A stretch of 64,000 bases of DNA from a virus (taxonomy: Duplodnaviria; Heunggongvirae; Uroviricota; Caudoviricetes). Positions 32,503 to 60,380 of the stretch are shown one piece after another. The notes under the pieces are model-generated. The model did no database searches. It worked only from the letters and a program-made list of their open reading frames with translations, and was not told where the DNA came from. The translations under genes and the position numbers were made by a program. Position 1 is the first letter of the stretch; every line of letters begins with the position of its first letter. Location of the stretch: IMG/VR virus record IMGVR_UViG_3300037461_000469, positions 29,752 to 93,751 of that record; one strand, 5' to 3'.

Positions 32503-32578
32503 TGGCGGGCCAGGAGGGAGTTGAACCCCCAGTCTCAGATTTGGAGTCTGATGGTTTATCCAATTAACCGACTGACCC
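32503..32578 (-). tRNA. tRNA-Trp(CCA)
   Basis: Hand-folded cloverleaf: acceptor GGGTCAG/CTGGCCC, anticodon loop CTCCAAA, T-loop TTCAACT, CCA encoded. Confidence 0.75.
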
Positions 32579-32579
32579 G

Positions 32580-32666
32580 TGGTGCTAAGGGTGGGATTCG
32601 AACCCACAATCCGTTGCCGGCTACGGCTTTTGAGACCGCATTGAATACCAGTTCCAGCACCTTAGC
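32580..32666 (-). tRNA. tRNA-Leu(CAA), type II
   Basis: Acceptor GCTAAGG/CCTTAGC, AC loop CTCAAAA, long variable arm, T-loop TTCGAAT, CCA encoded. Confidence 0.75.
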
Positions 32667-32667
32667 A

Positions 32668-33450
32668 TTATTTCATTTCAGCAGTAGCCTGTATCACACA
32701 ATTATTAAGAAACTCTCTATCTTGGGTAAAAGTAGGAGCGTGTGCAGTTGCCCATTTGCTACGGCTTACATCATTGATAAGGGTGTGAACTTTGATAATC
32801 ATTCTACCCCTCTTGTACTTGGGGGCGTAGTCGTTCCAATTCTGCCCCTTCTGAAAAATCATTTCCTGAAGTTCTGTCGTGTTCTTGCCGTTCATTTCCT
32901 TGTGCGAGTAGAGAGATTGTGCAACCGAAAGGATACTGTTGCGAACACAGTCCTGTTGTCTCCAAATGAAGTAGTTTTGTACCTCGTCCCACTCAGGGAT
33001 TTGAAATACCCTGCTGTCGAACTCACCCCACTTCATGTTACGAGTGCAGGACTCAATTGTGTGTGGGCCTTCCTCGTAAGCAAACCTTTTCAGCCTAGCC
33101 TCATTGAATGCCCTCGTTGCCATACTTGCCGACACGCTTGCCATCTTCTGAATGTTGTTGTCGAACCAAGCATCCGTTGTGAGTTTGTCGAAGTCCATGA
33201 GAAGAATAGAAATCTCATCGGACTGCACGTAGGCGAACTTGGCTCCCTGAATGTTCTTGCAGAGGTCGGCCGCAGTTGCGTCCATGTCCTCAATAAATCC
33301 ATCATCGAACGGACGAGTCAGCCCACGCGTGTACGTGTGGAAAGCCTTCCCGTCAATTCGGATAATGGTGTGCGTTCTACGGGGCAGACAAATTCGTGTT
33401 CTGTCCTCGTAGTTCGATTTCATCCTATTTCCGATGTCATCTTTCTTCAT
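32668..33450 (-). CDS. Thg1-like protein (tRNA-His guanylyltransferase family 3'-5' polymerase)
   Basis: IIRIDGKAFH...AYVQSDEISILL and WRQQDC motifs match the Thg1/TLP family; the gene sits between two tRNA-Leu genes. Confidence 0.7.
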   Translation of the reverse strand: MKKDDIGNRMKSNYEDRTRICLPRRTHTIIRIDGKAFHTYTRGLTRPFDDGFIEDMDATAADLCKNIQGAKFAYVQSDEISILLMDFDKLTTDAWFDNNIQKMASVSASMATRAFNEARLKRFAYEEGPHTIESCTRNMKWGEFDSRVFQIPEWDEVQNYFIWRQQDCVRNSILSVAQSLYSHKEMNGKNTTELQEMIFQKGQNWNDYAPKYKRGRMIIKVHTLINDVSRSKWATAHAPTFTQDREFLNNCVIQATAEMK

Positions 33451-33495
33451 TTTATCCTCACTAAAATTAAATACTTGGTGCTAGCGAAGGGATTC

Positions 33496-33582
33496 GAACC
33501 CCCAATCCTTTTCAGGCCGTGCGTTCTAAGCGCACGATGAATACCAGTTCCAACACGCTAGCAAATGGGGTGAATGGAGAGA
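33496..33582 (-). tRNA. tRNA-Leu(TAG), type II
   Basis: Acceptor GCTAGCG, AC stem GTGCG/CGCAC with loop CTTAGAA, CCA encoded. Confidence 0.75.
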
Positions 33583-33585
33583 TTC

Positions 33586-33663
33586 GAACTCTCGACTAGT
33601 GCGTTCACAGCGCACCGCCTTTGGCCTCTAGGCGACATCCACCATAAAAGTTAAAAATTGGGT
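33586..33663 (-). tRNA. tRNA-His(GTG) with genomically encoded G-1
   Basis: AC loop CTGTGAA; extra 5' G pairing with C73; CCA encoded. Confidence 0.75.
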
Positions 33664-33677
33664 GAGCGGGACTTGCA

Positions 33678-33749
33678 CCCGCAACTCGTAGTTTCCGATA
33701 CTACGCGTCTTCTATTGACTTACCACCCACTACAATTCAATGGTTGGGA
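33678..33749 (-). tRNA. tRNA-Pro(CGG), non-canonical subfamily (U1:A72, D-loop AATAGAA, T-loop TGCAAGT)
   Basis: AC stem GTAGT/ACTAC with loop ATCGGAA; T-stem GCGGG/CCCGC. Confidence 0.5.
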
Positions 33750-33760
33750 ATGGGAGATTC

Positions 33761-33836
33761 GAACTCCCAAATTCTTGCGTCCAAGGCAAGCGACTTAACC
33801 GTTAGTCTAATTCCCAATACAGCCGTTGATGGTACT
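33761..33836 (-). tRNA. tRNA-Pro(TGG) (U1:A72)
   Basis: AC CTTGC-CTTGGAC-GCAAG; T-loop TTCGAAT; CCA encoded. Confidence 0.7.
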
Positions 33837-33839
33837 GCC

Positions 33840-33910
33840 CCACCGCCTCACGGTTCAGAGCCGTGTGTAATGCTATTTTACTAAACGGCTAAAAGCACCC
33901 CTGAGAGGAA
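33840..33910 (-). tRNA. tRNA-Gln(CTG), compact non-canonical subfamily (T-loop GGCAGTA)
   Basis: AGCCGTT|TA|GTAA-AATAGCA-TTAC|A|CACGG-CTCTGAA-CCGTG|AGGC|GGTGG-GGCAGTA-CCATC|AACGGCT. Confidence 0.5.
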
Positions 33911-33915
33911 TTGAA

Positions 33916-33987
33916 CCTCTACTGTAGGTTTAGGAAACCTGTGCGCTATCCGTTACACCACAGGGGCTTAAAAACGACAGGTCATAC
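33916..33987 (-). tRNA. tRNA-Arg(CCT) (G1:U72, no CCA)
   Basis: AC CAGGT-TTCCTAA-ACCTA, T-loop TTCAATT. Confidence 0.65.
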
Positions 33988-33992
33988 GACAA

Positions 33993-34108
33993 GGTGAGAA
34001 CACTTCGGGTGCGACCCGACCATCGTAAAGTCTTTAAACTAACCACGTGAACTCGCATCTCACCATTAGGGGAAATTGCGTGTCTAGTTCCACGCCGCTG
34101 TCGTTAAA
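33993..34108 (-). ncRNA. structured RNA element S1 (tRNA-like 5' domain plus expanded body; unknown function)
   Basis: Termini AACGACAG / CTGTCGTT are complementary; the internal conserved block CCACGCCGCTG is shared with S2 and S3. Confidence 0.45.
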
Positions 34109-34116
34109 TAGTGCAG

Positions 34117-34186
34117 GGCTGCTCCGATTCGAACAGAGATAAATGGGTTCAAAGCCCATCACCCTAACCATTGGGTTACAGCCCTA
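34117..34186 (-). tRNA. tRNA-Gln(TTG) (A1:U72)
   Basis: D-stem ACCC/GGGT, AC ATGGG-CTTTGAA-CCCAT, T-loop TTCGAAT; short variable loop. Confidence 0.6.
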
Positions 34187-34190
34187 TACG

Positions 34191-34262
34191 CATCCCCGAA
34201 GGGAATTGAACCCCTACTAAGGGTTTAGAAGACCCTTGCGCTATCCGTTACACCACGGGGAC
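34191..34262 (-). tRNA. tRNA-Arg(TCT)
   Basis: AC AGGGT-CTTCTAA-ACCCT; paralog of the Arg(CCT) gene. Confidence 0.7.
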
Positions 34263-34300
34263 ATAAAATTGCTTGTAGAAGAAGGGAGCCTTTCGGCCCC

Positions 34301-34645
34301 CTATTCAACACCTAGAACGTTTTTCAGCCTTGCCTTGTTGATGAATAAACTGTAGTCGTGCCAATTTGCGAAAATGGTTGCTTCCTCTAACATCACCGCT
34401 TCCACCTCTCCGTCTGATAACCCTCTGTCTTCCCATTCATCGCAACCACTACAACTCCCGTAGGAGTAGTTGTAACTGAACACCCGGCCGTCCCCCAACA
34501 ATACGTCTACGTCTACGTGGCCTTGGTAGTCATCCTCGTAGTCTGCCCTCAACAATTTCATGGCTCCCAGTTTGTCCAACACACTTTGCAAGTTGTCTGC
34601 GTAACGTCCCATGTGGCTTACTTCTACTTTGTTTTGTTCTGACAT
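34301..34645 (-). CDS. hypothetical acidic protein
   Basis: ORF within the tRNA island. Confidence 0.45.
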   Translation of the reverse strand: MSEQNKVEVSHMGRYADNLQSVLDKLGAMKLLRADYEDDYQGHVDVDVLLGDGRVFSYNYSYGSCSGCDEWEDRGLSDGEVEAVMLEEATIFANWHDYSLFINKARLKNVLGVE

Positions 34646-34705
34646 TTTGCACCTCCAAATGCCTTAGTGATGCTTCTTCGTATCAGAACATTAAAATTGC
34701 TAAAT

Positions 34706-34793
34706 TGGCGATGGGTGAAGGAGTTGAACCTCCGCTACTGTTACGTAGGCTTCGGTTTAGCAAACCGACACATTACCGCTCTGTCAACCCACC
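34706..34793 (-). tRNA. tRNA-Ser(GCT), type II
   Basis: AC TCGGT-TTGCTAA-ACCGA; long variable arm; CCA encoded. Confidence 0.7.
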
Positions 34794-35120
34794 CTATTTT
34801 TTCTTAGTCCACACGAACCCTAAAAGCAAACGATGTATTTTCCTATGAAACCAATTGGGAATTTTTCCATTCGGGGGTTCAACAGTTATACAACCACCAA
34901 ATAAAGAACAATGCCAATCCCCTGGCGAAGTGGTTACTGTATAAATGGGCATATAAGGGGAGTTCAAGATTTTTTCATCAGAGGACTTGGTAAAATGACA
35001 CCCCTTACAACAATCAAAAACTTCTTGGTTAGAAAAATGAATATCATATTCGGGACAACTTGAATGTAAAATATTTTTCAATTTTGTTTTTTTAGTAAGA
35101 GGACACTTTTTACTAATCAT
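34794..35120 (-). CDS. MIPKxCPL paralog family member 5
   Basis: MISKKCPLTKKTKLKNILHSSC N-terminus; its stop abuts the 5' end of tRNA-Ser. Confidence 0.5.
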   Translation of the reverse strand: MISKKCPLTKKTKLKNILHSSCPEYDIHFSNQEVFDCCKGCHFTKSSDEKILNSPYMPIYTVTTSPGDWHCSLFGGCITVEPPNGKIPNWFHRKIHRLLLGFVWTKKK

Positions 35121-35158
35121 TTATTATCCTGTTTATATTATATCATATTTTGTTTTTT

Positions 35159-35241
35159 CGGAAAGAGCAAGATTCGAACTTGCGGGTCTTTCGACCTTCC
35201 GCTTTCCAAGCGGATGCAATAGACCGCTCTGCCATCTCTCC
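35159..35241 (-). tRNA. tRNA-Ser(GGA), type II
   Basis: AC TCCGC-TTGGAAA-GCGGA; T-arm GCAAG-TTCGAAT-CTTGC. Confidence 0.7.
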
Positions 35242-35244
35242 ATT

Positions 35245-35339
35245 TGGCGGGAAGAAAGGGATTCGAACCCCTGAAGGATGGTATTAGCACCCTTGTCTGC
35301 TTTCAAGGCAGATGCATTAAACCGCTCTGCCATCTTCCC
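35245..35339 (-). tRNA. tRNA-Ser(TGA), type II with very long variable arm
   Basis: AC TCTGC-CTTGAAA-GCAGA; CCA encoded. Confidence 0.65.
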
Positions 35340-35349
35340 GTAATAAAAA

Positions 35350-35420
35350 TGCCCAATGATGGTTACGCTCCACCGCCTCGTCTTTGTAGGAGACATATTC
35401 TACTATTAAACTAATCGGGC
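35350..35420 (-). tRNA. tRNA-Val(TAC), compact non-canonical subfamily (C33; T-loop AGCGTAA)
   Basis: GCCCGAT|TA|GTTT-AATAGTA-GAAT|A|TGTCT-CCTACAA-AGACG|AGGC|GGTGG-AGCGTAA-CCATC|ATTGGGC. Confidence 0.45.
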
Positions 35421-35427
35421 ATACAAG

Positions 35428-35499
35428 TACCCCCCAAGGGAATCGAACCCCTGTCTCCTCGTTCGTAGCAAGGTGTTCTATCCGTTGAACTAGGAGGGC
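35428..35499 (-). tRNA. tRNA-Arg(ACG)
   Basis: AC CCTTG-CTACGAA-CGAGG; G1:U72; T-loop TTCGATT. Confidence 0.7.
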
Positions 35500-36147
35500 T
35501 TATTTTTCGTAAAACATAGGACTAGGATAATGATGCAACATGAACTGATTCTGCACAGTCGAATGTGTCGGATAGTTGTAGCATATATGGGGGTTGATAC
35601 AATACACGTTCATTCCCTTTTGTAAGTCCCTGAGTAATGCATCGAACGGGGCAGGGAACCTGTCATACATAACGATAATTCTGTCGTAAATTCTCTTGTT
35701 GATGATTACGCCGTGTACGCCGAAAGCGGATATTACTTTGTACACGTTCTTACAGATTCGTACAGGCCTGTAGCCGTCTTGGTCTGTATGCGCACCCGCA
35801 AGATACAACATATCCCAATCCTTCGGAACTGCTTCTAGAAAGCCTTCCAAATGCTCGTTGAAATCATCCACGAGAATCAAATCATCTTCAAACAAGGCAA
35901 CTGCTCTAGAGTGATAATACTTGCGTATAATTCGCTTGTATGATTCCAAACACCCGAAGGCATTTAGGCCGTGGCGGGTGATGTCTTCGGCGGGATACAT
36001 ATGTTCTACGTCTTTCCCCGCAATTGCGGGAAAAAGTTCAGCCGTGATTCCCAACTTGTTAAATTGGATGTTCATATGATTTGTCTTGAACTCGTTTAGG
36101 CTGAGTAGAACAACGTTATCAACGATTGTGTGTAAAATGCTTTTCAT
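35500..36147 (-). CDS. glycosyltransferase family 25-like protein
   Basis: N-terminus VLLSLNEFKTNHMNIQFNKLGITAELFPAIAGKD resembles the GT25 start. Confidence 0.45.
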   Translation of the reverse strand: MKSILHTIVDNVVLLSLNEFKTNHMNIQFNKLGITAELFPAIAGKDVEHMYPAEDITRHGLNAFGCLESYKRIIRKYYHSRAVALFEDDLILVDDFNEHLEGFLEAVPKDWDMLYLAGAHTDQDGYRPVRICKNVYKVISAFGVHGVIINKRIYDRIIVMYDRFPAPFDALLRDLQKGMNVYCINPHICYNYPTHSTVQNQFMLHHYPSPMFYEK

Positions 36148-36176
36148 TCTTGCTCCCCTATTATTTAGGGGAAAAG

Positions 36177-36247
36177 TGGGTCTAGAGGGAATCGAACCCC
36201 CATCTTCAGGTTAAAGGCCTGCTCGTCTACCGTTGACATATAAACCC
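36177..36247 (-). tRNA. tRNA-Lys(TTT)-like with C32-C33 anticodon loop (CCTTTAA)
   Basis: Canonical D and T arms; AC stem CAGG/CCTG with a 27:43 mismatch. Confidence 0.5.
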
Positions 36248-36254
36248 ATAAAAG

Positions 36255-36325
36255 TGAAGCCGGAGGGAATCGAACCCACATAGATTGATTAAGAGTCAAC
36301 TATTCTTCCGTTGAATTACGGCTCC
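36255..36325 (-). tRNA. tRNA-Lys(CTT)
   Basis: AC GTTGA-CTCTTAA-TCAAT. Confidence 0.65.
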
Positions 36326-36329
36326 ATAA

Positions 36330-36480
36330 AACCGACAGGTTGAAATTTATATTTCAACTTTCCTACTTTTCCATCGTATCTTTACCTTCTAGATTAGGTG
36401 TAGGAATCGTCTATCTGTCTAGTATTCCTCTAGAAAACACGCAAACGATAGTGTGTACTCTATCCACACCGCTGTCGGTT
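36330..36480 (-). ncRNA. structured RNA element S2 (paralog of S1)
   Basis: Termini ACCGACAG / CTGTCGGT are complementary; conserved internal block; internal 8-bp hairpin GTTGAAAT/ATTTCAAC. Confidence 0.45.
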
Positions 36481-36494
36481 AAAATTGCAAAAAA

Positions 36495-36568
36495 TGGTGA
36501 GGCCGAGAAGAATCGAACTTCTATAGATTGATTAAAAGTCAACTATTCTGCCGTTGAATTACGACCCC
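36495..36568 (-). tRNA. tRNA-Lys(TTT)
   Basis: AC GTTGA-CTTTTAA-TCAAT; CCA encoded. Confidence 0.7.
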
Positions 36569-36575
36569 ACAAAAC

Positions 36576-36657
36576 TGCCTAGGGTGGGATTTGAACCCAC
36601 ATGAGCCGAAGCCCAACGGATTTTAAGTCCGCACGGTATACATTCCACCACCTAGGC
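36576..36657 (-). tRNA. tRNA-Leu(TAA), type II
   Basis: Acceptor GCCTAGG/CCTAGGC; AC GCGGA-CTTAAAA-TCCGT. Confidence 0.7.
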
Positions 36658-36670
36658 GTAATAATTCAAA

Positions 36671-36746
36671 TGGTGGCAAGGGGAGGAATCGAACCTCCAT
36701 TTCCCGCTCTTCAGGCGGGTGCTATGACCACGTAAGCGACCTTGCC
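36671..36746 (-). tRNA. tRNA-Phe(GAA)
   Basis: AC CCCGC-CTGAAGA-GCGGG; CCA encoded. Confidence 0.75.
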
Positions 36747-36748
36747 TT

Positions 36749-36834
36749 TGGTGTTGCTGAAAGGCATCGAACCTTCACCCCTTACGGGACAGGACTCTCA
36801 TTCCTGCGTGTCTACCAAGTTACACCACAGCAAC
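36749..36834 (-). tRNA. tRNA-Leu(GAG), type II
   Basis: AC CAGGA-ATGAGAG-TCCTG; CCA encoded. Confidence 0.65.
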
Positions 36835-36842
36835 ATAAAAAA

Positions 36843-36921
36843 TGGCGGGGGCGAAGAGATTCGAACTCCTAACTCACAGGGGTTAACGGCCCCCGGTTCT
36901 ACCGATTAGAACTACACCCCC
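36843..36921 (-). tRNA. tRNA-Asn(GTT) with C33 (loop CCGTTAA)
   Basis: AC GGGGG-CCGTTAA-CCCCT; CCA encoded; 7-nt variable region. Confidence 0.6.
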
Positions 36922-37176
36922 ACTCTAACATCATGCATATTGATGATGATTATTCTTCGTAAAAGTCCGAAGTCAAAATAAATTTCAAATCTGCGATTGT
37001 TTTTAGCAAAGGTCAAATGGGAGCCTAATTCAATACAGCCGTCAAAAGCCTTTGCCCAAGTAAAGTAAATTTTTTTGTGTCTAAAAAGTCTAAACTCTTT
37101 CTCCACTAAAAAAGGACTTCTGTTGTACTCACAATCATGTTCATCTTCTTTTTTCATTTTTACCTCTTGTTAATTT

Positions 37177-37250
37177 TGGAGCGGGTAGAGGTAGTCGAAA
37201 CCTCATCCTTTGGTTGGAAGCCAAATATTCTACCGTTGAACTACACCCGC
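37177..37250 (-). tRNA. tRNA-Gly(TCC) (U73)
   Basis: AC TTTGG-CTTCCAA-CCAAA; T-loop TTCGACT; CCA encoded. Confidence 0.75.
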
Positions 37251-37310
37251 AAGCGGACGAAAATATTAGAAATTTGAAATTCGAATTTCACAAAAACACT
37301 AAATATATGT

Positions 37311-37931
37311 ATGGGATTAATAAAAGGACATTGTAGCCATTGTGGAAAAAATTTTTCAAAAAAAGGGTCTATTGAAAACTATAACCGATGGAAAACTCAT
37401 TTTTGTTCGAAAGACTGTCAAGATAAATATAAAATGACAAAAATAAAAGTGATTTGTAAAAACTGCAATAAAGAATTTGAAAAACAACTGAAACGAATAG
37501 TAACTAATAATTTCTGTTCTTCTTCTTGTGCCGCTATTTATAATAACACTCACAAAACAAAAGGAACCCGAACATCAAAGTTAGAGGTTTGGCTTCAGGA
37601 ACAACTACGAACTCTGTATCCAAAAGAAGAAATTCTTTTCAACGATAAGACCGCTATTAACTCAGAGTTGGATATTTACTTCCCTCGTCTAAAATTAGCC
37701 TTTGAATTGAACGGTATTTTTCATTACGAACCAATTTACGGGAAAGAAAAACTTGAACAAATTCAAAACAACGACCAAAGAAAATTTCTTCTTTGTCAAC
37801 AAAAAGGAATCTCGCTTTGCGTGATTGATGCTTCGAAAGAAAATTATTTCAAAGAAGAACGAAGCAAAAAATATTTAGATATTGTTATTGATATTTTTCA
37901 AAAGGCGGCGAAGGGAGTCGCACCCATTTAG
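37311..37931 (+). CDS. putative homing endonuclease, Zn-ribbon + Vsr-like (DUF559/PD-(D/E)xK) nuclease domain, paralog 1
   Basis: N-terminal CxxC pairs; C-terminal LDIYFPRLKLAFELNGIFHY matches the Vsr core D-I-x-F-P..KLA...G.F.H; AT-rich; the 3' end overlaps tRNA-Cys. Confidence 0.5.
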   Translation: MGLIKGHCSHCGKNFSKKGSIENYNRWKTHFCSKDCQDKYKMTKIKVICKNCNKEFEKQLKRIVTNNFCSSSCAAIYNNTHKTKGTRTSKLEVWLQEQLRTLYPKEEILFNDKTAINSELDIYFPRLKLAFELNGIFHYEPIYGKEKLEQIQNNDQRKFLLCQQKGISLCVIDASKENYFKEERSKKYLDIVIDIFQKAAKGVAPI

Positions 37932-37973
37932 ACGGTTTTGCAGACCGCTGCCTAACTGTTCGGCCACGCCGTC
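37903..37973 (-). tRNA. tRNA-Cys(GCA)-like, non-canonical T-loop TGCGACT
   Basis: AC GCGGT-CTGCAAA-ACCGT; acceptor has one A:C mismatch; overlaps the 3' end of Vsr-like paralog 1. Confidence 0.4.
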
Positions 37974-37978
37974 CTACA

Positions 37979-38061
37979 CGGAGAGAGCAAGATTCGAACT
38001 TGCGCCCCTTTCGGGGAACGGCTTTCGAAACCGCCACGATAGACCACTCTGACATCTCTCC
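37979..38061 (-). tRNA. tRNA-Ser(CGA), type II
   Basis: AC GCGGT-TTCGAAA-GCCGT; paralog of the Ser(GGA) gene. Confidence 0.7.
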
Positions 38062-38065
38062 ACAA

Positions 38066-38136
38066 AGCGGATTATCGGCTCTGCCCCGATACTCCAACGT
38101 TGGCAACGTTGGGTGCTACTATTACACCAAACCCGC
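38066..38136 (-). tRNA. tRNA-Gly(GCC), compact non-canonical subfamily (U73; T-loop GGCAGAG)
   Basis: GCGGGTT|TG|GTGT-AATAGTA-GCAC|C|CAACG-TTGCCAA-CGTTG|GAGT|ATCGG-GGCAGAG-CCGAT|AATCCGC. Confidence 0.5.
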
Positions 38137-38145
38137 AGAAATTCG

Positions 38146-38217
38146 CACCCCTACTAGGATTCGAACCCAGTCTCAATCGTTCGAAGCGATTGTTGCTTTC
38201 CATTACATCATAGGGGC
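38146..38217 (-). tRNA. tRNA-Arg(TCG)
   Basis: AC AATCG-CTTCGAA-CGATT; G1:U72. Confidence 0.65.
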
Positions 38218-38222
38218 ATAAT

Positions 38223-38376
38223 ACCGCTAGGCGGGGCTTGATTCCCGCTGACCGTTATCTAGCCATTGTAGTTTAACCGTATCACTTGCCACCCTGGTCT
38301 TTCGGGCTACGGGTTCTGTCCAATTGAGGACATAGGCGTTCGCTACAATGCGGTGTCCTTCCACGCCGCTAGCGGT
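38223..38376 (-). ncRNA. structured RNA element S3 (paralog of S1/S2)
   Basis: Termini ACCGCTAG / CTAGCGGT pair; the two changed positions on one strand are matched by the complementary changes on the other (covariation relative to S1/S2); T-arm-like hairpin GCGGG...CCCGC next to the 3' strand. Confidence 0.45.
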
Positions 38377-38455
38377 TATCAGAAAGGACAACGCAAAGCG
38401 ATGTCCCAACTCTTTCTACACTTGATTACCACGGTAGATGAGATAGATGAAATTA

Positions 38456-38529
38456 TGGAGCCGCTGAATGGAATTGCACCAATATTTCTTGTTTACCGAA
38501 CAAGCGGTCTGCTATTGAACTACAGCGGC
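38456..38529 (-). tRNA. tRNA-Thr(GGT), non-canonical subfamily (D-loop AATAGCA, T-loop TGCAATT, C33)
   Basis: AC CTTGT-TCGGTAA-ACAAG; CCA encoded. Confidence 0.5.
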
Positions 38530-38701
38530 ATTTACGTAATGAAGCGTTGGATGCTACGATATGAAAACGGTTCAAAGCCACCTGACGAGAACGATTCGCC
38601 AAAACCCGCTTACGAAACGGGTATTTTGCCAATTAAATTAAGGTGGCATAAAAAAGAGCCATAAAAGAGATTCGAAAATGAGATTTTCACTAAATAGTAG
38701 T

Positions 38702-39364
38702 ATGAGTATAGAAAAAGATATTTTGTATTGTAATTATTGTCATAAAAAACTTGAAAGGGTTTGGGTGCGATATGGAAAAAGAGCAACCCAAAATCACTAT
38801 TGCTCTGCTGACTGTTTACATCAATTTAGAAATAAAGCACAATTAGTTTCTTGTAAAAATTGCGGAAAAGAATTTATGAAAAGATTAGACCAAATTAAAA
38901 AATTCCCTAATAATTTTTGTTCCCAATCTTGCGCCGCCATTTATAATAATGCTCACAAAACAAAAGGAACCCGAACTTCAAAACTTGAAGTTTGGTTACA
39001 GGGGCGATTACGAACCCTTTACCCTAACGAAGAAATTCTTTTCAACGATAAAACTGCTATCAACTCCGAATTAGATATTTACTTTCCTCGTTTGAAGTTG
39101 GCTTTTGAGTTGAATGGTATCTTCCATTACGAACCTATATACGGAAAAGAAAAACTTACACAAATTCAAAACAACGACCAAAGAAAGTTTTTACTTTGCC
39201 ATCAAAAAGGAATTTCGCTTTGTGTAATTGACACATCGAAACAGAAATACTTTAAAAAAGAACAAAGTGAAAAATATTTAAAAATCATAACAGATATAAT
39301 TCAGCCGCCGGAGGAAATTGCATCCCCAACATCCGCATTACAGGTGCGGCACTCTGCTAATTGA
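38702..39364 (+). CDS. Vsr-like homing endonuclease paralog 2
   Basis: About 75% identical to paralog 1 over the nuclease domain; start set at the MSIEKDILYC shared with paralog 3; C-terminal read-through into the tRNA-Thr gene. Confidence 0.5.
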   Translation: MSIEKDILYCNYCHKKLERVWVRYGKRATQNHYCSADCLHQFRNKAQLVSCKNCGKEFMKRLDQIKKFPNNFCSQSCAAIYNNAHKTKGTRTSKLEVWLQGRLRTLYPNEEILFNDKTAINSELDIYFPRLKLAFELNGIFHYEPIYGKEKLTQIQNNDQRKFLLCHQKGISLCVIDTSKQKYFKKEQSEKYLKIITDIIQPPEEIASPTSALQVRHSAN

Positions 39365-39375
39365 GTTACGGCGGC
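39303..39375 (-). tRNA. tRNA-Thr(TGT), non-canonical subfamily (T-loop TGCAATT, C33)
   Basis: Acceptor GCCGCCG/CGGCGGC; AC CCGCA-CCTGTAA-TGCGG; overlaps the 3' end of Vsr-like paralog 2. Confidence 0.5.
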
Positions 39376-39403
39376 ATCAAATATATTTAATTTAAAACCG
39401 AAA

Positions 39404-39476
39404 AATTTCTACGGGGAGTCGAACCCCGATTTTCTGGTTGCAGGCCAGATGTACGCCCGTTATACTATAGCCCCAT
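39404..39476 (-). tRNA. tRNA-Ala(TGC)-like with mismatched 5' acceptor strand (possible 5'-editing substrate or pseudogene)
   Basis: Canonical D, AC (TCTGG-CCTGCAA-CCAGA) and T arms, but 5' GGGGCTA against 3' TAGAAAT leaves G:A mismatches at positions 2-4. Confidence 0.35.
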
Positions 39477-39577
39477 AATAAAGGGTATGGTATTAAAGAA
39501 ATATTGCAAAATAACAGAGAGGGGAAATAATTCAAAACCTTATCTTGTCTAGAATGATAAGATTCTTTTTCTTTCAC

Positions 39578-39653
39578 GTGTGCCGTTGGGATTTGAACCC
39601 AAGCCTCCCGCCTTCTGCGGCGGGTGTGCTATCCAGCCTACACCATTAGCACA
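39578..39653 (-). tRNA. tRNA of undetermined specificity (palindromic anticodon arm CCCGCC-GCAGAA-GGCGGG)
   Basis: Canonical D-loop AGGCTGGATA and T-loop TTCAAAT; anticodon loop is 6 or 8 nt long, not 7. Confidence 0.4.
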
Positions 39654-39681
39654 ACTCCTCTCCGAACTTATAAGTTCAATG

Positions 39682-39753
39682 TTGTCGTGGGTGGGGTCGA
39701 ACCACCATTGAGCGATTATAAGTCGCCTCGCCTGCCAATTGGCGGACACGACA
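39682..39753 (-). tRNA. tRNA-Ile(TAT) (U1:A72)
   Basis: AC GGCGA-CTTATAA-TCGCT; T-loop TTCGACC. Confidence 0.65.
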
Positions 39754-39759
39754 ATATTC

Positions 39760-39799
39760 AAAATAAAATTAAATACTGCGGGGCGGGTGGTCCCGCCCC
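39760..39799 (-). terminator. intrinsic terminator (minus-strand direction)
   Basis: 8-bp GC stem GGGGCGGG/CCCGCCCC followed, in the minus sense, by a U-rich tract. Confidence 0.5.
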
Positions 39800-40387
39800 A
39801 AAAAGTTATAATGGATGACCGCCGACAGAGACTTGACGCATGAAGGCGGTACTTAGGCAGATGTAGGCTCGTATGATTGGCCCACTTCGCCTTAACCTAA
39901 GTCAATCTTGGTGCGGGGCTATTGGTAACACCGTGGTCAAACAGCATTACCAACAGCCTGACCTTCCGCACACTTTCCAAACACTCTAATTTGAACCTAC
40001 AGAAATCCACGAATGTCGCACCACCAACGAATTTCTGACGATTCTCTTTTACCATAATTACTGACCGCTAATGGAATTGTTCCGAATCTCTGTGCGATTG
40101 AGAATGGTTCCGCTAACTGTATTAAAAGCACCACCCCTGTCCCATCATAATCCAAAATCTAAATGATTTCGCAGGGTGGCTGACTTAAAATCGAATCTTA
40201 CTCAGGGGCTAACAGGTTCCACGACAACCCGTTGCCTCTGAGTTCCGTCTAATCTTTTTAATTTTAATTATGTCCGCTGACCTAAATCTCAGGCCTTGGT
40301 CGTGGAAAGGTCAAAGATTTATTTCTGCCAACGGATTCAAAGGTGGTGTCCTTATAAGGGACAACCTTCCAACCTAAGAACAAAATG

Positions 40388-40472
40388 TGCCGCGGGGTAG
40401 AATTGCACTACCAACGCCTTGCGGCGAACGGTTTTACAGACCGCTAGGCTCACTACGCTGCCCAACCACGGC
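40388..40472 (-). tRNA. tRNA-Tyr(GTA), type II, T-loop TGCAATT
   Basis: AC GCGGT-CTGTAAA-ACCGT; variable arm hairpin CGCC-GCAA-GGCG. Confidence 0.55.
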
Positions 40473-40478
40473 ATAAAG

Positions 40479-40549
40479 TCCCCAATGACGGTACTGCCCC
40501 GCCGTCTGACGATTATCGGTCGCCGGTTCTGCTATTGAACTAAATGGGG
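40479..40549 (-). tRNA. tRNA-Ile(GAT), compact non-canonical subfamily (C33; T-loop GGCAGTA)
   Basis: CCCCATT|TA|GTTC-AATAGCA-GAAC|C|GGCGA-CCGATAA-TCGTC|AGAC|GGCGG-GGCAGTA-CCGTC|ATTGGGG. Confidence 0.45.
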
Positions 40550-40612
40550 ATGTATTGCTGACGGGGATTGAAAATTTTATTCCGATTTCTTTCAAAAACA
40601 CTAAATAATAGT

Positions 40613-41224
40613 ATGAGTATTAGCAAAGAAATTTTGTATTGTGATTATTGCCACAAAAACTTCAATGGATGGGTTCGTAATAAAAATAGGGAAAAAGAAA
40701 AACACTACTGTTCCCGATATTGTTATCGTCAAGCCAAAATCACAAAACAAACCGTTTCCTGTAAAAATTGCGGAAAAGAATTTGAAAAAACATTAGGTGA
40801 AATTAAAAAATATTCAAATCATTTTTGTTCTCACTCTTGTCGTGCCATTTATCAAAACACCCACAAAACAAAAGGAACCCGAATATCGAAGTTGGAAATT
40901 TGGCTTCGGGAACAATTACGAACTCTTTACCCTGACGAAGAAATTCTTTTCAACGATAAAACCACCATCAACTCTGAATTGGATATTTATTTTCCAAACC
41001 GCAAATTGGCCTTCGAACTAAATGGAATTTTCCATTACGAACCAATTTACGGAAAAGAAAAACTTACACAAATTCAAAACAATGACCAACGTAAGTTTTT
41101 ACTTTGCCAACAAAAAAATATTTCTCTTTGTGTGATTGATGCTTCAAAAGAAAATTACTTTAAAGAAGAACGAAGTAAAAAATATTTGAATATTATTATC
41201 AATATTATTAATAATCAAAAGTAG
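40613..41224 (+). CDS. Vsr-like homing endonuclease paralog 3
   Basis: Same domain layout; its stop overlaps the 3' end of tRNA-Glu. Confidence 0.5.
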   Translation: MSISKEILYCDYCHKNFNGWVRNKNREKEKHYCSRYCYRQAKITKQTVSCKNCGKEFEKTLGEIKKYSNHFCSHSCRAIYQNTHKTKGTRISKLEIWLREQLRTLYPDEEILFNDKTTINSELDIYFPNRKLAFELNGIFHYEPIYGKEKLTQIQNNDQRKFLLCQQKNISLCVIDASKENYFKEERSKKYLNIIINIINNQK

Positions 41225-41293
41225 CCCTGCGGGTAATCGAAACCCGACCTAAAGATTGAGGGTCTTTCATCCTGACCGTTAGACGACAGGGCC
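41222..41293 (-). tRNA. tRNA-Glu(CTC) with C33 (loop CCCTCAA)
   Basis: AC AAAGA-CCCTCAA-TCTTT; T-loop TTCGATT. Confidence 0.6.
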
Positions 41294-41319
41294 AATTACT
41301 CTACAGTAACAAAAAATCT

Positions 41320-41390
41320 CCACCCTGTGATACTCAGGGATTGGCGGCAGATACGCCGCTGTCCTATTATGTTAGACGATGGAGAAAATA
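41320..41390 (-). pseudogene. degenerate tRNA-like element
   Basis: Has an acceptor-like stem and T-like hairpin CCCTG-AGTATCA-CAGGG, but the anticodon hairpin has a 6-nt loop. Confidence 0.25.
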
Positions 41391-41394
41391 TTTC

Positions 41395-41469
41395 TTGGTA
41401 GCCCCACGGAGAATTGAACTCCGACTCCGAGATTGAAAATCTCGTGTCCTGACCATTAGACGATGGAGC
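41395..41469 (-). tRNA. tRNA-Glu(TTC)
   Basis: AC CGAGA-TTTTCAA-TCTCG; T-loop TTCAATT; CCA encoded. Confidence 0.75.
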
Positions 41470-41481
41470 CATAAAATTGCT

Positions 41482-41557
41482 TTGGTCGCAGAGGAAAGAT
41501 TCGAACTTTCGGCTACAAGTTTATGAAACTCGTTCCTTAGCCACTAGGATACTCTGC
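41482..41557 (-). tRNA. tRNA-Met(CAT), elongator (or Ile2)
   Basis: Acceptor CGCAGAG/CTCTGCG fully paired; AC CGAGT-TTCATAA-ACTTG. Confidence 0.7.
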
Positions 41558-41562
41558 GAAAA

Positions 41563-41638
41563 ATGGTAGCGGGTCAGGGAATCGAACCCTGCTCAGGGGT
41601 GGTTATGAGCCACCTGAAACACCTTGCCTCCCACCCGC
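41563..41638 (-). tRNA. tRNA-Met(CAT), initiator-like (1:72 mismatch, A11:U24)
   Basis: U1:U72 mismatch; D-stem GAGG/TTTC gives A11:U24; AC GGTGG-CTCATAA-CCACC. Confidence 0.55.
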
Positions 41639-42281
41639 AATAAAAATACAAATGGAATAACCTTTGGTTACTTGATTTACATAAATCTAAACTTTCCACT
41701 TATCACTAAAAATGGTGATGAGTGGAAATAATAAAATATTTCACGCCGCAAGCAAGGCCACATCCAAGTACTCGTTGCCGAAATACAAAAATGGGGGCAA
41801 CCCCTGCTCCACGGCACTATTGCTAACCTCTTGTGGTTTTTTGAGTATAGGAACTAGGATACGACTTCCGAGTACCACTCCCCACGGCTCACCACTAACC
41901 TCAATAAAAATCTTTCTGACCGCCGAATTTCACGGGATACTTTGGGTCATACTAGATTTAAAATTGCTACTTCTTTTTTTACATCTTGGTGAAAAAGAAT
42001 ACGAAGAAAAAACACCATCTTATAAAAGTGCTAGAAGTCAGCCACCACTACGGAAGAGCGTTTTATACACGTCTGCGAACTGCCTTTAAACTTCAGCCGC
42101 CATTCGTCAATGGCGAACTCGTAGATACAGGGACGATATGCCCTGCGGTGGCTGACTTCAAAATTGCAAGAGTCGAACTAGCCCTCTACGGCGTGAACGC
42201 TGAACCCGCACGTCTGCAAGGCTACTCGTAGAGTGGAATGACGGCTCTCTGCCGTTGGCTAATCCGACTCATAAAAAAGCA

Positions 42282-42357
42282 TGGCGGGACCGACGGGTAC
42301 TGCCCCCGCATATTCCACGCTGACAACGTGGCGCGCCTACTTGTGTGCCACGGCCCC
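42282..42357 (-). tRNA. tRNA-Asp(GTC), non-canonical T-loop GGCAGTA (G73, CCA encoded)
   Basis: AC CCACG-TTGTCAG-CGTGG; acceptor GGGGCCG/CGGTCCC. Confidence 0.5.
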
Positions 42358-42519
42358 ATTAATTAAAAGGATATAATATTGCTTACAAAAACAAAAAGAA
42401 AGAAGCGGGGTTCCCCTCGCCGATTCGAAAATCGTCAAGAGGAACGCCCACTTCAAAAAGCCACAAAACCAAAAATGTCAAACACCCTAAGACTCATAGC
42501 CTACGAGTCAATACAACCC

Positions 42520-42548
42520 ATTATAACACAGGTTGTTGTATCTGTCAA
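42520..42548 (-). promoter_or_regulatory. sigma70-type promoter, TTGACA-N17-TGtgtTATAAT, directed into the non-coding region and tRNA-Asp
   Basis: Perfect consensus hexamers with 17-nt spacer. Confidence 0.65.
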
Positions 42549-42593
42549 GCCCTTTTGGAATTTTTTTTCAAAATCCAAAACAGTCTTACATTC

Positions 42594-42669
42594 TGGTCGG
42601 GGTGAGAGGGTTCGAACCTCCAACTTCTTGCTCCCAAAGCAAGCACGCTGCCAATTGCGCCACACCCCG
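42594..42669 (-). tRNA. tRNA-Pro(TGG) (G37, C1:G72)
   Basis: AC CTTGC-TTTGGGA-GCAAG; T-loop TTCGAAC; CCA encoded; driven by promoter 42687..42715. Confidence 0.7.
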
Positions 42670-45471: not shown

Positions 45472-45972
45472 TTATGAGGGAATTGTTTGTACCTCATCGA
45501 ACTGTTTATCAATGTTTTGCAATCCGTTTTTAAACTGAGTGAGTTGTCGTGCGATTACTTCTTTCGGTACTGCGCTTCTGTCTTTGCCACTTGTTAAATC
45601 ACCCTGCACTCTGCCGTAGAGTTTGTCCACGATTTCCTCGTCTGTGCCTTGCGGCTGAAAGACGATGGCTACCTTGTGGACTCCTGCGGGAACGTTCTTC
45701 AGAAATTGGTTGCGTAGGGATGATTTGGTGTTGGTGGCATCCAAGACAGCCAAACCCATTTTATCAAGGTTGGCCTGTATTCTTTCTGCTGTTATTTTCC
45801 ACACCATAAAATCTCTGCTTTGGTCGCTGACCGAACCTGTGAGTTCCTTACGGATGGCATCAGGTTCCACGATTACTTCCCGTTCGAACACTTTGTCGAG
45901 AATGGTGGATTTGCCTGAACCACTAAGGCCGATTGCCATATAAAACGTAGGATGCATCACTTTAAATCTCAT
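45472..45972 (-). CDS. P-loop kinase (polynucleotide kinase-like)
   Basis: Walker A GLSGSGKST; short kinase-domain length; sits among RNA-repair genes. Confidence 0.55.
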   Translation of the reverse strand: MRFKVMHPTFYMAIGLSGSGKSTILDKVFEREVIVEPDAIRKELTGSVSDQSRDFMVWKITAERIQANLDKMGLAVLDATNTKSSLRNQFLKNVPAGVHKVAIVFQPQGTDEEIVDKLYGRVQGDLTSGKDRSAVPKEVIARQLTQFKNGLQNIDKQFDEVQTIPS

Positions 45973-47358: not shown

Positions 47359-47767
47359 TTCGTACCTTCTTCCAAAGATTAATCAATTCTTTTTCCGTGT
47401 AAATATTTTTGTTATCAAAAAGCATATAGTCGTTGTGTTCCCCTGCGGGAAGTTTGACCCCATCGTATCCCATCTGTATCAATTGGACTATCATGTATTT
47501 GTCGTACTCATTCCACCCTGCCCAATTTTTCCCTGTGAGATATCTCTCCATTATGTATTTCGTTCCCTGTGCGCCTGATTCGCCTCTGATGATTGTGTCC
47601 TTATCATCCGTGAACCAAATGGTTCCCTGCGCACCCTTCTTCGGGTTGAACTTTCGAAATTCGGTATTTGTGCCGTGATAGACTTTCGGAAAACTTTTTA
47701 CGAAGTCTTCAGGCGTATCAAATTGCAAGGCTTCCTGTTCCAAAGATTCCACGATTCTAAGTTTCAT
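47348..47767 (-). CDS. hypothetical protein with YHGT motif (possible Tpt1/ADP-ribosyltransferase-like fold)
   Basis: KVYHGTNTEF resembles the KptA/ART YHGT region; weak call. Confidence 0.3.
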   Translation of the reverse strand: MKLRIVESLEQEALQFDTPEDFVKSFPKVYHGTNTEFRKFNPKKGAQGTIWFTDDKDTIIRGESGAQGTKYIMERYLTGKNWAGWNEYDKYMIVQLIQMGYDGVKLPAGEHNDYMLFDNKNIYTEKELINLWKKVRNGI

Positions 47768-54925: not shown

Positions 54926-55510
54926 TTATTTAGTTAAAAGTTCTTTTAGATTTGTGATTACAATGACGGCATTTCCGTGAGGGTAAGGCTGTCCGTATTT
55001 AAAGTCAAATTTTCTAGGATTCGTAACTTTCCAATTGTTGTGGTCATCTCGGTTGAGAGTAAGAATATTTTTGTCGTTTAATCTTGTAACCACGGTGGTA
55101 GCGTAGTGGTCAAGAAGCAAATTATAGCCGATAGGCCAAGTAATCAGGTACGTCTTTGCCTCTAGCATCTTATTCAGGGTTGTGATTGCCCGATAAGGCG
55201 AAGTGGCACGAAGGCCGTATTCTGCTTTGCCGATGTGTTCAATCGTTGAAACCGACATCACGTTCTTGCCAACGTAATCCAAATTTTCGGCAAACTCTTT
55301 TGTTGCCGCATCATCCGTGGGGTCGAAAATTTGATGATAGGTCAGCAAGTACTTACAAGATACCGCCCCTACCTCAATAAATTCCTCTTTGTCGGTGCGT
55401 TGGATGAAATGGGCTAACAGGGGAACTTCGAACCGCCTTTCCGTGCTAGGGTCAGGCTCCAAGTAATTCAGTTCCATCCCACCAATTTTGAAAGTCTTAT
55501 TTTGGGGCAT
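54926..55510 (-). CDS. hypothetical protein
   Basis: ORF. Confidence 0.5.
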   Translation of the reverse strand: MPQNKTFKIGGMELNYLEPDPSTERRFEVPLLAHFIQRTDKEEFIEVGAVSCKYLLTYHQIFDPTDDAATKEFAENLDYVGKNVMSVSTIEHIGKAEYGLRATSPYRAITTLNKMLEAKTYLITWPIGYNLLLDHYATTVVTRLNDKNILTLNRDDHNNWKVTNPRKFDFKYGQPYPHGNAVIVITNLKELLTK

Positions 55511-56564: not shown

Positions 56565-56566
56565 GT

Positions 56567-56944: not shown

Positions 56945-57004
56945 TTTCTTTCCTCCAATATCTATTATAACACAAGGTGTTACAAAAACTATTTATGGTT
57001 TTGC

Positions 57005-60379: not shown

Positions 60380-60380
60380 T

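Follow-up and report, generated by a model that had tools for sequence, protein, structure and literature searches.

The window analysed here is a 64,000-nucleotide stretch (positions 29,752 to 93,751) of the virus record IMGVR_UViG_3300037461_000469, which belongs to an uncultivated large phage of the Caudoviricetes, and the subject of this work is position 33 of the anticodon loops in its tRNA array. A uridine at this position (U33) is among the most conserved nucleotides in biology and is a textbook requirement for the anticodon U-turn. The array contains 40 tRNA or tRNA-like genes, 35 of which were found by ARAGORN and five by a covariance model only (33820-33890, 35350-35420, 38066-38136, 39409-39470 and 40479-40549). 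Position 33 is U in 31 of the 40 genes, C in eight and G in one, which has an eight-nucleotide loop. The initial annotation, made from the sequence alone, reported at least eight loops with a cytosine at position 33 (C33) and U33 in the remaining tRNAs, about 30 in number. All eight loops were found, on the minus strand, and the statement about the others stands but for the single tRNA with G33. The array, the genes with C33 and a second tRNA-Lys gene with which one of them is compared are as follows.

32503-42669, minus strand: whole tRNA array
35350-35420, minus strand: tRNA-Val(UAC), loop CCTACAA at 35384-35390, C33; found by the covariance model only (Rfam RF00005, 44.7 bits, full-length alignment)
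36176-36247, minus strand: tRNA-Lys(UUU) paralog B, loop CCTTTAA, C33, positions 36-41 UAACCU; ARAGORN, Rfam 58.0 bits
36495-36568, minus strand: tRNA-Lys(UUU) paralog A, loop CTTTTAA, U33, positions 36-41 UAAUCA; ARAGORN
36843-36921, minus strand: tRNA-Asn(GUU), loop CCGTTAA, C33, CCA encoded; ARAGORN, Rfam 45.5 bits
38456-38529, minus strand: tRNA-Thr(GGU), loop TCGGTAA with U32 and C33, CCA encoded; ARAGORN, Rfam 53.4 bits
39303-39375, minus strand: tRNA-Thr(UGU), loop CCTGTAA, C33; ARAGORN, Rfam 55.3 bits
39409-39470, minus strand: tRNA-like element resembling tRNA-Ala ("Ala-like"), arm TCTGG-CCTGCAA-CCAGA, C33; Rfam 41.1 bits over model positions 5-66 only
40479-40549, minus strand: tRNA-Ile(GAU), loop CCGATAA at 40513-40519, C33; missed by ARAGORN, RF00005 36.3 bits, full-length
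41221-41293, minus strand: tRNA-Glu(CUC), loop CCCTCAA, C33; ARAGORN, Rfam 54.5 bits

Fold and integrity of the C33 tRNAs

Each of the eight sequences forms a seven-nucleotide loop on a five-base-pair anticodon stem with four or five standard pairs, and all eight loops have A37. ARAGORN and Rfam/Infernal together place seven of them in tRNA genes, and the eighth lies in the Ala-like element. Recomputation of the folds, which the initial annotation had proposed, gave C33 in five genes with ARAGORN and in two more with the Rfam model. The seven genes score 36.3-58.0 bits over positions 1-71 of RF00005, above the gathering score of 29; tRNA-Ile(GAU) was found by a focused covariance-model search. 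None of the eight loops has the U33 of an elongator tRNA and no other register was found. It had been considered that alternative stem registers might place U at position 33, but this explanation fails. When the seven-nucleotide loop was shifted by -3 to +3 in four ARAGORN genes (Lys-UUU, Asn-GUU, Thr-GGU and Thr-UGU; Glu-CUC was removed by de-duplication), the number of stem pairs fell from 4-5 to 0-3, except for one shift that keeps four pairs and does not bring U to position 33. A second CCGATAA at 38072 was rejected as the Ile anticodon loop, as it sits in the T-stem and acceptor of a tRNA-Gly(GCC).

The seven genes share the cloverleaf, the seven-nucleotide loop, A37 and the stem pairing of the canonical bacterial elongator (RF00005), and five of the seven have canonical T and D loops. 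They differ from it in C33 and, for Val-UAC and Ile-GAU, in a non-canonical pair of T-loop and D-loop. The T-loop is AGCGTAA in Val-UAC, with the D-loop AATAGTA, and GGCAGTA in Ile-GAU, which also has one U-U mismatch in its acceptor stem. Most of the C33 tRNAs are the sole phage copy of their anticodon, and tRNA-Asn(GUU) is the only Asn tRNA of the array. The Lys-UUU paralog B has a canonical U33 twin, paralog A, with which it shares 58% identity. Both Met-CAU tRNAs of the array have U33. Broken stems, a low score and fast divergence, which are signs of a pseudogene, are found in the Ala-like element and not in the other seven genes, and these seven look like working elongator tRNAs. Aminoacylation of the C33 tRNAs and their use by the ribosome are indirectly suggested by the compensatory evolution of their stems, described below, and by their canonical features.

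The D, anticodon and T arms of the Ala-like element are normal, but its 5' GGGGCTA and 3' TAGAAAT do not pair as an acceptor stem, with three of seven pairs Watson-Crick and a terminal G·U. Most probably it is a pseudogene or a tRNA-like RNA that does not decode; it might also serve as a decoy or a processing signal.

The initial annotation treated CC-NNN-AA as a special frame. This was not borne out, since C32, A37 and A38 are the commonest nucleotides in the U33 tRNAs of this phage too, and positions 32, 37 and 38 are not enriched above background in the wider sample. The closing pair 31-39 was tried as a correlate of C33 and had no clear effect.

C33 in related phages, viral contigs and cells

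Relatives of the array were collected with a gene that lies inside it.

32668-33450, minus strand: Thg1-like tRNA-His guanylyltransferase (phrog_4717, E = 4e-83)

With this gene as the anchor, 62 viral and 80 metagenomic loci were fetched and ARAGORN was run on all of them. C33 among these loci is confined to the closest relatives, whose Thg1-like proteins are 74-84% identical to that of the window, and the loops are identical. Counted over unique sequences, C33 occurs in 14 of 138 tRNAs in this clade and in 1 of 133 in more distant relatives. The C33 tRNAs of the five related loci are listed below.

L001: Val-UAC
L063: Val-UAC
L002: Glu-CUC, Asn-GUU and the Ala-like element
L003: Thr-UGU, Thr-GGU, Lys-UUU and Val-UAC
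L066: Ser-CGA and Gly-UCC

The comparison with orthologs in related phages, also proposed by the initial annotation, thus found identical C33 loops on diverged stems in the closest relatives. In the C33 Val-UAC lineage all four loci (the window, L001, L003 and L063; 58-82% identity) share CCTACAA, while the acceptor and anticodon stems have been exchanged for compensated pairs. Sequencing error had been named as a possible source of C33 and is excluded, as independent metagenome assemblies have identical C33 loops.

The C33 and U33 alleles are distributed as a mosaic among these relatives. L002 and L066 have a different Val-UAC gene with U33. Lys-UUU paralog A has U33, and its copies in the window (at 36495) and in L002 share 99% identity; type B has C33 in two loci, the window and L003 (89% identical), and U33 in L066. 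The Gly-UCC genes of L066 (C33) and of the window (U33) are 94% identical. The L002 copy of Asn-GUU is also C33, on a different stem, and the L003 ortholog of Thr-GGU is 85% identical with an unchanged loop. Thr-UGU has a C33 ortholog in L003 and a U33 ortholog in L002, each with 70% identity. The Glu-CUC genes of the window and L002 have the same sequence (100% identity), and that of L003 is another gene, with U33. The Ile-GAU gene of L003 is U33. The Ala-like element has a copy in L002 (4487-4557) that is 90% identical and has the same defective acceptor end, while the neighbouring genes are 99-100% identical; the two copies differ by one compensatory change in the anticodon stem. In its place L003 has a tRNA-Ala(UGC) of normal structure, with G3:U70 and with U at position 33. 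A rule that C33 requires a pyrimidine at position 36 held in the window (8/20 versus 0/19, p = 0.003), but was broken by the C33 Ser-CGA of L066 and was weak in the wider sample.

The gaps in the array of the window are filled by three paralogous open reading frames on the plus strand, opposite to the tRNAs (37311-37931, 38678-39364 and 40568-41224), which are 67-75% identical. Their N-termini contain zinc fingers, their matches in PHROGs are homing/HNH endonuclease families (phrog_559, 3339 and 9084), and copies of them are found elsewhere in the L001 and L066 arrays. The mosaic of tRNA alleles among relatives may stem from exchange driven by such mobile endonucleases within the arrays.

Other unusual features of these arrays were observed. 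The tRNA at 39578-39653 (minus strand) has G33 in an eight-nucleotide loop, CGCAGAAG. Its ortholog in L002 (4166-4241) has a near-identical body and a seven-nucleotide loop, CGTCAAA, with anticodon UCA, which would read UGA, and the syntenic gene in L003 (1975-2046) has the loop CGCATTG. A stable body with a fast-changing loop suggests a possible suppressor or frameshift tRNA. L002 also has an ortholog of the window tRNA-Arg(UCG) at 5339-5411 with the same stem, AATCG/CGATT, the loop CTTCAAA and the anticodon UCA, and it is a candidate opal (UGA) suppressor through a single anticodon change.

A class of tRNAs with a non-canonical T-loop was also found. Positions 54-60 are GGCAGTA, AGCGTAA or AGCATAA in place of the normal TTCRANY, always together with a short D-loop, AATAGYA, that lacks GG. 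Members are encoded on the minus strand of the window (33820-33890, 35350-35420, 38066-38136 and 40479-40549), in L002 (at 2787, 4061, 4662, 5668 and 8431) and in L003 (at 844, 928, 1315, 3413 and 5228). These tRNAs are conserved across relatives, score 36-50 bits with Rfam and are missed by ARAGORN. The window tRNA-Val has AATAGTA/AGCGTAA and its L001 ortholog (77% identical) has AACGGTA/TTCGATT, so that the D- and T-loops switch jointly, with T54-A58 exchanged for A54-T58 and G18/psi55 for A18/G55. The joint switch looks like covariation of the tRNA elbow.

C33 is also found well beyond this clade. Viral contigs were scanned for a CC-NNN-AA loop with a canonical T-arm downstream, followed by confirmation with ARAGORN; loops outside the window rest mostly on ARAGORN alone, and an Rfam spot check was consistent. 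The viral rates given here come from the matches listed, from ascertained loci and from related, non-independent contigs, so that the rates hold only approximately and the p-values err on the optimistic side. At least 68 Val-UAC and at least 38 Lys-UUU genes with C33 were confirmed in different viral contigs, and a matched control scan for U33 Val-UAC gave 96 genes among the matches listed. Among the other tRNAs, C33 occurs in 57 of 956 (6.0%) in arrays with C33 Val and in 13 of 939 (1.4%) in arrays with U33 Val. C33 therefore clusters by array (odds ratio 4.5, p = 7e-8), in agreement with the proposal of a systematic, non-random feature with a shared genome-level cause. The initial annotation had placed the recurrence in one genome, which proved too narrow; it is clade-wide and extends to many unrelated phage tRNA arrays, two of which rival the window (8/27 in L322 and 6/23 in L262). 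Against the 1.4% background the 8/40 of the window has a binomial P of 8e-8, and 7/39, with the Ala-like element excluded, has P = 1e-6. Literature searches found no earlier description of C33 in phage or viral tRNAs.

The 206 C33 genes of the census equal the 2948 U33 genes in the pairing of the acceptor and anticodon stems, in the T-loop, in U8, in GG and in the purine at position 37. Genes with A33 or G33 number 20 (<1%) and look aberrant. The large excess of C33 over A33 and G33 argues that C33 does not come from false-positive tRNA calls. ARAGORN called nine CCTACAA matches in the viral loci L262-L381 as tRNA-Cys(ACA) with the loop CTACAAA, one base off register; an ACA anticodon is implausible, and these nine may add to the C33 tRNA-Val(UAC) genes, with stems that are ambiguous.

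Inheritance was examined with the viral Val-UAC genes. The nearest neighbour has the same state at position 33 for 113 of 149 unique genes, compared with 75 +/- 7 by permutation. The C33 Val-UAC genes are as diverse as the full set (mean identity 55%), and no pair of C33 and U33 genes is more than 84% identical. This pattern excludes rapid toggling and error. The test shows heritability; since the genes were sampled by state, it does not tell selection apart from inheritance of a neutral character.

The frequency of C33 depends on the isoacceptor. In phage arrays the following counts were obtained.

Val-GAC: C33 in 7 of 12
Leu-GAG: C33 in 6 of 17
Ile-GAU: C33 in 17 of 73
Asp, Gln-UUG, Trp, Tyr, Phe, His, Cys, Lys-CUU, Arg-ACG and Leu-UAA: C33 in 0 of 43-64 each

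C33 is found in 7.6% of tRNAs with a purine at position 35 and in 2.2% of those with a pyrimidine (3.6-fold, p = 9e-8). The enrichment sits in family boxes with purine 35 (5.9%) and in Ile-GAU, and the rate elsewhere is about 2%. Three of the C33 tRNAs in the window, Lys-UUU, Asn-GUU and Glu-CUC, belong to the least tolerant class, split boxes with pyrimidine 35 (about 2%). Together these counts provide a map of the tolerance of C33, which favours purine 35 and family-box tRNAs.

Deviations from U33 are exceptional in elongator tRNAs (Grosjean & Westhof, PMC5041475), which agrees with the view of the initial annotation that C33 is chiefly a feature of eukaryotic initiator tRNA. A very specific probe for the anticodon arm of canonical bacterial tRNA-Ile(GAU), with C at position 33, gave five matches among 185,579 species, with one genome each, where the U33 denominator is only implied. 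The contrast with 17 of 73 phage Ile-GAU genes is very large. All five matches are in metagenome-assembled genomes: two in complete rRNA operons (L502 and L506), one beside a partial 16S gene, one alone and one in a tRNA array. The last (L503) is an 8-kb locus of the Acidobacteriota chromosome OY969418.1, in which the C33 tRNA-Ile lies among more than 20 tRNA genes within 5 kb; this array may belong to a prophage or to the chromosome itself. Inherited as an allele class, C33 typifies the tRNA arrays of phages and is hardly seen outside them.

RNA repair and other genes in the window

The window has a large terminase gene (26571-28493), a neck protein gene and many accessory genes. A megablast search of the array against 50,697 phage records gave no match. 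The terminase has matches only below 27% identity, to T4-like phages, and no close cultured relative was found. Related viral contigs are 220-360 kb long. In addition to the Thg1-like gene, the following genes for RNA repair and tRNA maturation are present.

2835-3860, minus strand: second RNA ligase (PF09414 with the PHA02142 OB domain; Pfam)
10585-11535, minus strand: RlaP, RNA-repair nucleotidyltransferase (PF10127, E = 3e-21)
45472-45972, minus strand: P-loop kinase (AAA_33; Pfam)
45973-47358, minus strand: CCA-adding tRNA nucleotidyltransferase, directly after the P-loop kinase (PHROGs phrog_2244, E = 3e-78)
51097-52323, minus strand: RNA ligase of the T4 Rnl1 family (PF09511, E = 2e-22)

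This set, with two RNA ligases, RlaP, the Thg1-like protein, the P-loop kinase and the CCA-adding enzyme, is unusually complete. The richness in RNA repair genes indicates that tRNA damage matters to the phage, and it does not tie C33 to any enzyme. A LAGLIDADG endonuclease gene (52326-53015) adjoins the Rnl1 gene. No deaminase domain was found with Pfam and PHROGs in the open reading frames of the window that were scanned (most of them at least about 100 amino acids long), and the window is part of a genome that is probably longer than 200 kb.

Several other genes of the window were noted. A module for salvage and synthesis of nicotinamide adenine dinucleotide (NAD+) at 16165-19847 (minus strand) encodes an NAD synthase (16165-16968), a nicotinate phosphoribosyltransferase (17333-18499) and an isochorismatase/nicotinamidase-like protein (19176-19847), and it is interrupted by a GIY-YIG endonuclease gene (18496-19221). 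The module may counter NAD-depleting defences. A small ADP-ribosyltransferase gene (ART-PolyVal, at the Pfam threshold) at 47348-47767 (minus strand) adjoins that of the CCA-adding enzyme; a tRNA-directed ADP-ribosyltransferase toxin has recently been described (PMC13617354). A 516-amino-acid protein made of several PAS sensor domains is encoded at 21941-23491 (plus strand), which is unusual for a phage, and it has no recognisable output domain. A lysine-2,3-aminomutase-like radical SAM enzyme is encoded at 48932-50044 (minus strand), and a cluster at 55497-63985 (minus strand) encodes glycosyltransferases, methyltransferases, a sulfotransferase and another radical SAM enzyme. The radical SAM gene and the cluster may form a glycan or protein modification pathway.

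Possible reasons for C33 in phage tRNAs

The initial annotation offered a shared decoding or modification peculiarity, or a tactic against anticodon nucleases, as the reason for C33. The explanation favoured here, tentatively and with rather less than even confidence, is that C33 is kept as an escape from host enzymes that read U33, be they modification enzymes or loop-directed nucleases. Judging from the biochemistry of model systems, C33 would change the recognition of the tRNA by those host enzymes that read its anticodon loop. It would hinder t6A37 formation in Lys-UUU, Asn-GUU, Ile-GAU and both Thr tRNAs and would remove the TGT recognition element in Asn-GUU. Such "unreadable" loops would evade an enzyme of the host or of a competitor by which loops of the U33 type are damaged or marked. 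This could be a nuclease with its cut at 32/33 or 33/34, or a modification-dependent one. The C33 tRNAs would act alongside the tRNA repair enzymes of the phage. It is rather doubtful, if possible, that the C33 tRNAs are phage-specific "stealth" elongators, which decode well enough and have been selected since U33- or U-turn-dependent host enzymes cannot process them; the enzymes evaded would then include t6A and queuosine enzymes, modification-dependent or loop-directed immune nucleases, and toxins.

Within the U-turn, residue 33 uses its 2'-OH to bond N7 when position 35 is a purine, and its O2 to reach position 36 when that is a pyrimidine (PMC5041475). From what is known of the structure, C33 would retain a stackable pyrimidine and both of these contacts and would cost only the hydrogen bond from N3-H to phosphate 36. 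Decoding would thus survive C33 at some cost, which would be smallest with purine 35. The enrichment of C33 with purine 35 matches the U33 contacts tabulated in PMC5041475.

Several enzymes that act on the anticodon loop have been characterized, and the evidence on C33 and t6A is mixed. C33 has been described as an anti-determinant for t6A37: E. coli TsaBCDE leaves a U33C initiator tRNA unmodified, and yeast KEOPS does the same with U33C tRNA-Thr(UGU) (PMC8887486). Five of the eight C33 tRNAs in the window (Lys-UUU, Asn-GUU, Ile-GAU, Thr-GGU and Thr-UGU) decode ANN codons. The recognition element of bacterial TGT is U33-G34-U35 (PMC5699537), and by analogy the C33 Asn-GUU should escape queuosine. 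The part of the initial annotation that invoked modification therefore has indirect support from the literature, but a modification peculiarity is not established. Among the nucleases, PrrC and RloC cleave between positions 33 and 34 (PMC2610378) and CdiA-CT EC536 cleaves between C32 and U33 (PMC11724271), so that position 33 adjoins both cuts. The AriB nuclease of PARIS targets exactly Lys-UUU, Thr-UGU and Asn-GUU, cuts between positions 40 and 41 and reads positions 39 and 41 (PMC12409363). All three of these target types, defined in E. coli, are C33 in the window, and the other five C33 tRNAs are not AriB targets. The U33 tRNA-Lys of the window has the E. coli AriB site UAAUCA, and the C33 tRNA-Lys has UAACCU, with other nucleotides at positions 39 and 41. 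The overlap with AriB is a lead and not a test, and position 33 is not an AriB determinant.

A number of observations weigh against escape from host enzymes. The structure of TsaBD with tRNA has no base-specific contact to U33, and its authors hold U33 to be unrelated to t6A (PMC13276492). Neither the t6A nor the queuosine enzymes act on Val-UAC, Glu-CUC and Ala-UGC, which means that no single known enzyme covers the whole C33 set. Avoidance of t6A as the sole cause was rejected, since these three are not t6A substrates and the ANN decoders of the wider sample are not significantly enriched once Ile-GAU is set aside. Colicin E5 (PMC1635277) and gamma-toxin (PMC2275089), the two nucleases on which U33C was tried directly, cut U33C substrates as well as U33, with no protection, and the tactic against anticodon nucleases is not established. 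The isoacceptor bias tracks structural tolerance (purine 35 and family boxes) and not any known list of nuclease targets. Close relatives carry C33 in different subsets of their tRNAs, so each single C33 allele is dispensable. A case-control comparison of repair genes near C33 arrays gave Rnl1 in 2 of 68 versus 0 of 96 loci and zero for the others, which is too few to inform. The viral rates are approximate and come from loci ascertained through C33 genes, and no nuclease or modification enzyme is linked to C33 here.

Alternatively, C33 may be tolerated, near-neutral variation, which is only slightly less probable than escape from host enzymes. U-to-C would be the least harmful change to the U-turn and would drift to the percent level under weaker selection, with no benefit; phage tRNAs merely supplement the host pool, and C33 would last longest with purine 35 and family-box decoding. 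The frequency of C33 does follow structural tolerance, the distribution among close relatives is mosaic, the near-identical Gly-UCC pair of L066 and the window differs at position 33, and other features of the array are loosened as well (non-canonical T-loops, the defective Ala-like gene and the eight-nucleotide loop). U33C gave no protection against the two nucleases tried, and the nearest-neighbour signal is expected of any heritable character. However, general relaxation predicts that C33 tRNAs would be more degenerate elsewhere than U33 tRNAs, and they are not. Clustering by genome demands an additional lineage-level factor, Lys-UUU, Asn-GUU and Glu-CUC of the window have C33 although they fall in the least tolerant class, the Val-UAC loop is invariant in four lineages despite complete turnover of the stems, and the rate of 20% in the window far exceeds the background. 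The tendency of C33 toward family boxes with purine 35 and Ile-GAU would also fit a specialisation of decoding, in which C33 reshapes the loop and changes the wobble range, speed or frame maintenance, for example with broader reading of four-fold boxes. For most C33 tRNAs of the window the array has no second gene with that anticodon, and their odd neighbours (the eight-nucleotide loop and the UCA suppressor of L002) suggest that these phages experiment with decoding. Such a specialisation is nevertheless unlikely: looser reading by the split-box tRNAs Lys-UUU, Asn-GUU and Glu-CUC would lead to errors, and relatives freely swap C33 and U33 alleles.

The clustering of C33 by genome would also fit a lineage-specific enzyme that edits C to U (or to pseudouridine) after transcription, so that U33 is restored and the genomic C is silent. 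C-to-pseudouridine editing exists at position 32 of bacterial tRNA (TrcP of Vibrio cholerae), but position 33 is not known to be edited. The scanned open reading frames of the window gave no deaminase domain, and the great diversity of the phages with C33 (mean identity of 55% among the C33 Val genes) would require a widespread enzyme, which makes editing very improbable. Pseudogenes, assembly errors or artefacts of the tRNA finders are the least credible source of C33. The unpaired acceptor of the Ala-like element and its 90% identity to the L002 copy, against 99-100% in the neighbours, point in this direction, as does the failure of ARAGORN to find Val-UAC and Ile-GAU, but the explanation holds only for the Ala-like element. 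It is refuted for the other seven genes by their scores of 36-58 bits against a gathering score of 29, by identical loops in independent assemblies, and by compensatory changes in the stems of tRNAs that are otherwise canonical. Artefacts would also yield A33 and G33 as often as C33, and the counts are 20 and 206.

Phage tRNAs with deviant anticodon loops are already known (PMC10264068), and the systems that most resemble escape from host enzymes are the Lys, Thr and Asn tRNAs of T5, which act against PARIS AriB, and the tRNAs of mycobacteriophages, which act against VapC/MazF (van den Berg et al. 2023). In these systems resistance is due to substitutions in the anticodon stem-loop. The window shares with them an array of host-type tRNA variants, lineage specificity and phage tRNA repair genes, and it shares with T5 and PARIS the involvement of Lys-UUU, Thr-UGU and Asn-GUU. 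It differs in that the substituted site is the universally conserved U33 and not positions 39 and 41 that AriB reads, in that at least ten isoacceptors are affected over the clade, and in that resistance here is hypothetical. The literature on phage tRNAs that was retrieved nowhere mentions position 33.

Natural tRNAs without U33 are known from eukaryotes. The cytoplasmic initiator tRNA-Met of plants and animals has C33, which is an anti-determinant for t6A by the bacterial and yeast enzymes (PMC8887486). Unlike the phage tRNAs, which appear to be elongators with seven different anticodons, the initiator has the anticodon CAU, binds directly to the P site and is not phage-encoded. CAU is absent from the C33 loops of the window, which have UAC, GAU, UUU, GUU, UGU, GGU, UGC and CUC. 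The three G:C pairs of the initiator type (29-31/39-41) are found only in Asn (GGGGG/CCCCT) and are absent from Val (TGTCT/AGACG), Lys (GCAGG/CCTGA), Thr-GGU (CTTGT/ACAAG) and Glu (AAAGA/TCTTT). The tRNA-Ser(CAG) of Candida is a natural elongator with G33, in which loop geometry and decoding are affected (PMC5041475). That case involves a single tRNA, a purine and a change of the code, whereas many phage tRNAs are involved here, with a pyrimidine and no sign of reassignment.

C33 is present in a fifth of the tRNAs of this phage, in more than 100 viral tRNA genes and in about a quarter of the sampled phage Ile-GAU genes, and it is nearly absent from cells. Judged by their sequences, these tRNAs would provide natural evidence that C33 is compatible with elongation in systems that infect bacteria. 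The C33 tRNAs are predicted to lack t6A37 and Q34, and C33 and U33 tRNAs may differ in their sensitivity to nucleases of the PrrC/RloC, CdiA or AriB type. If C33 is near-neutral, the finding would recalibrate how invariant U33 is and would explain why phage tRNAs are under-called by tRNA finders. If it is adaptive, C33 would be a general and easily recognised signature of anti-defence tRNAs in viromes and would provide design rules for orthogonal or nuclease-resistant tRNAs. If the C33 tRNAs are indeed "stealth" elongators, they would represent, jointly with the RNA repair genes, a widespread and so far unrecognised arm of the tRNA arms race between phages and their hosts.

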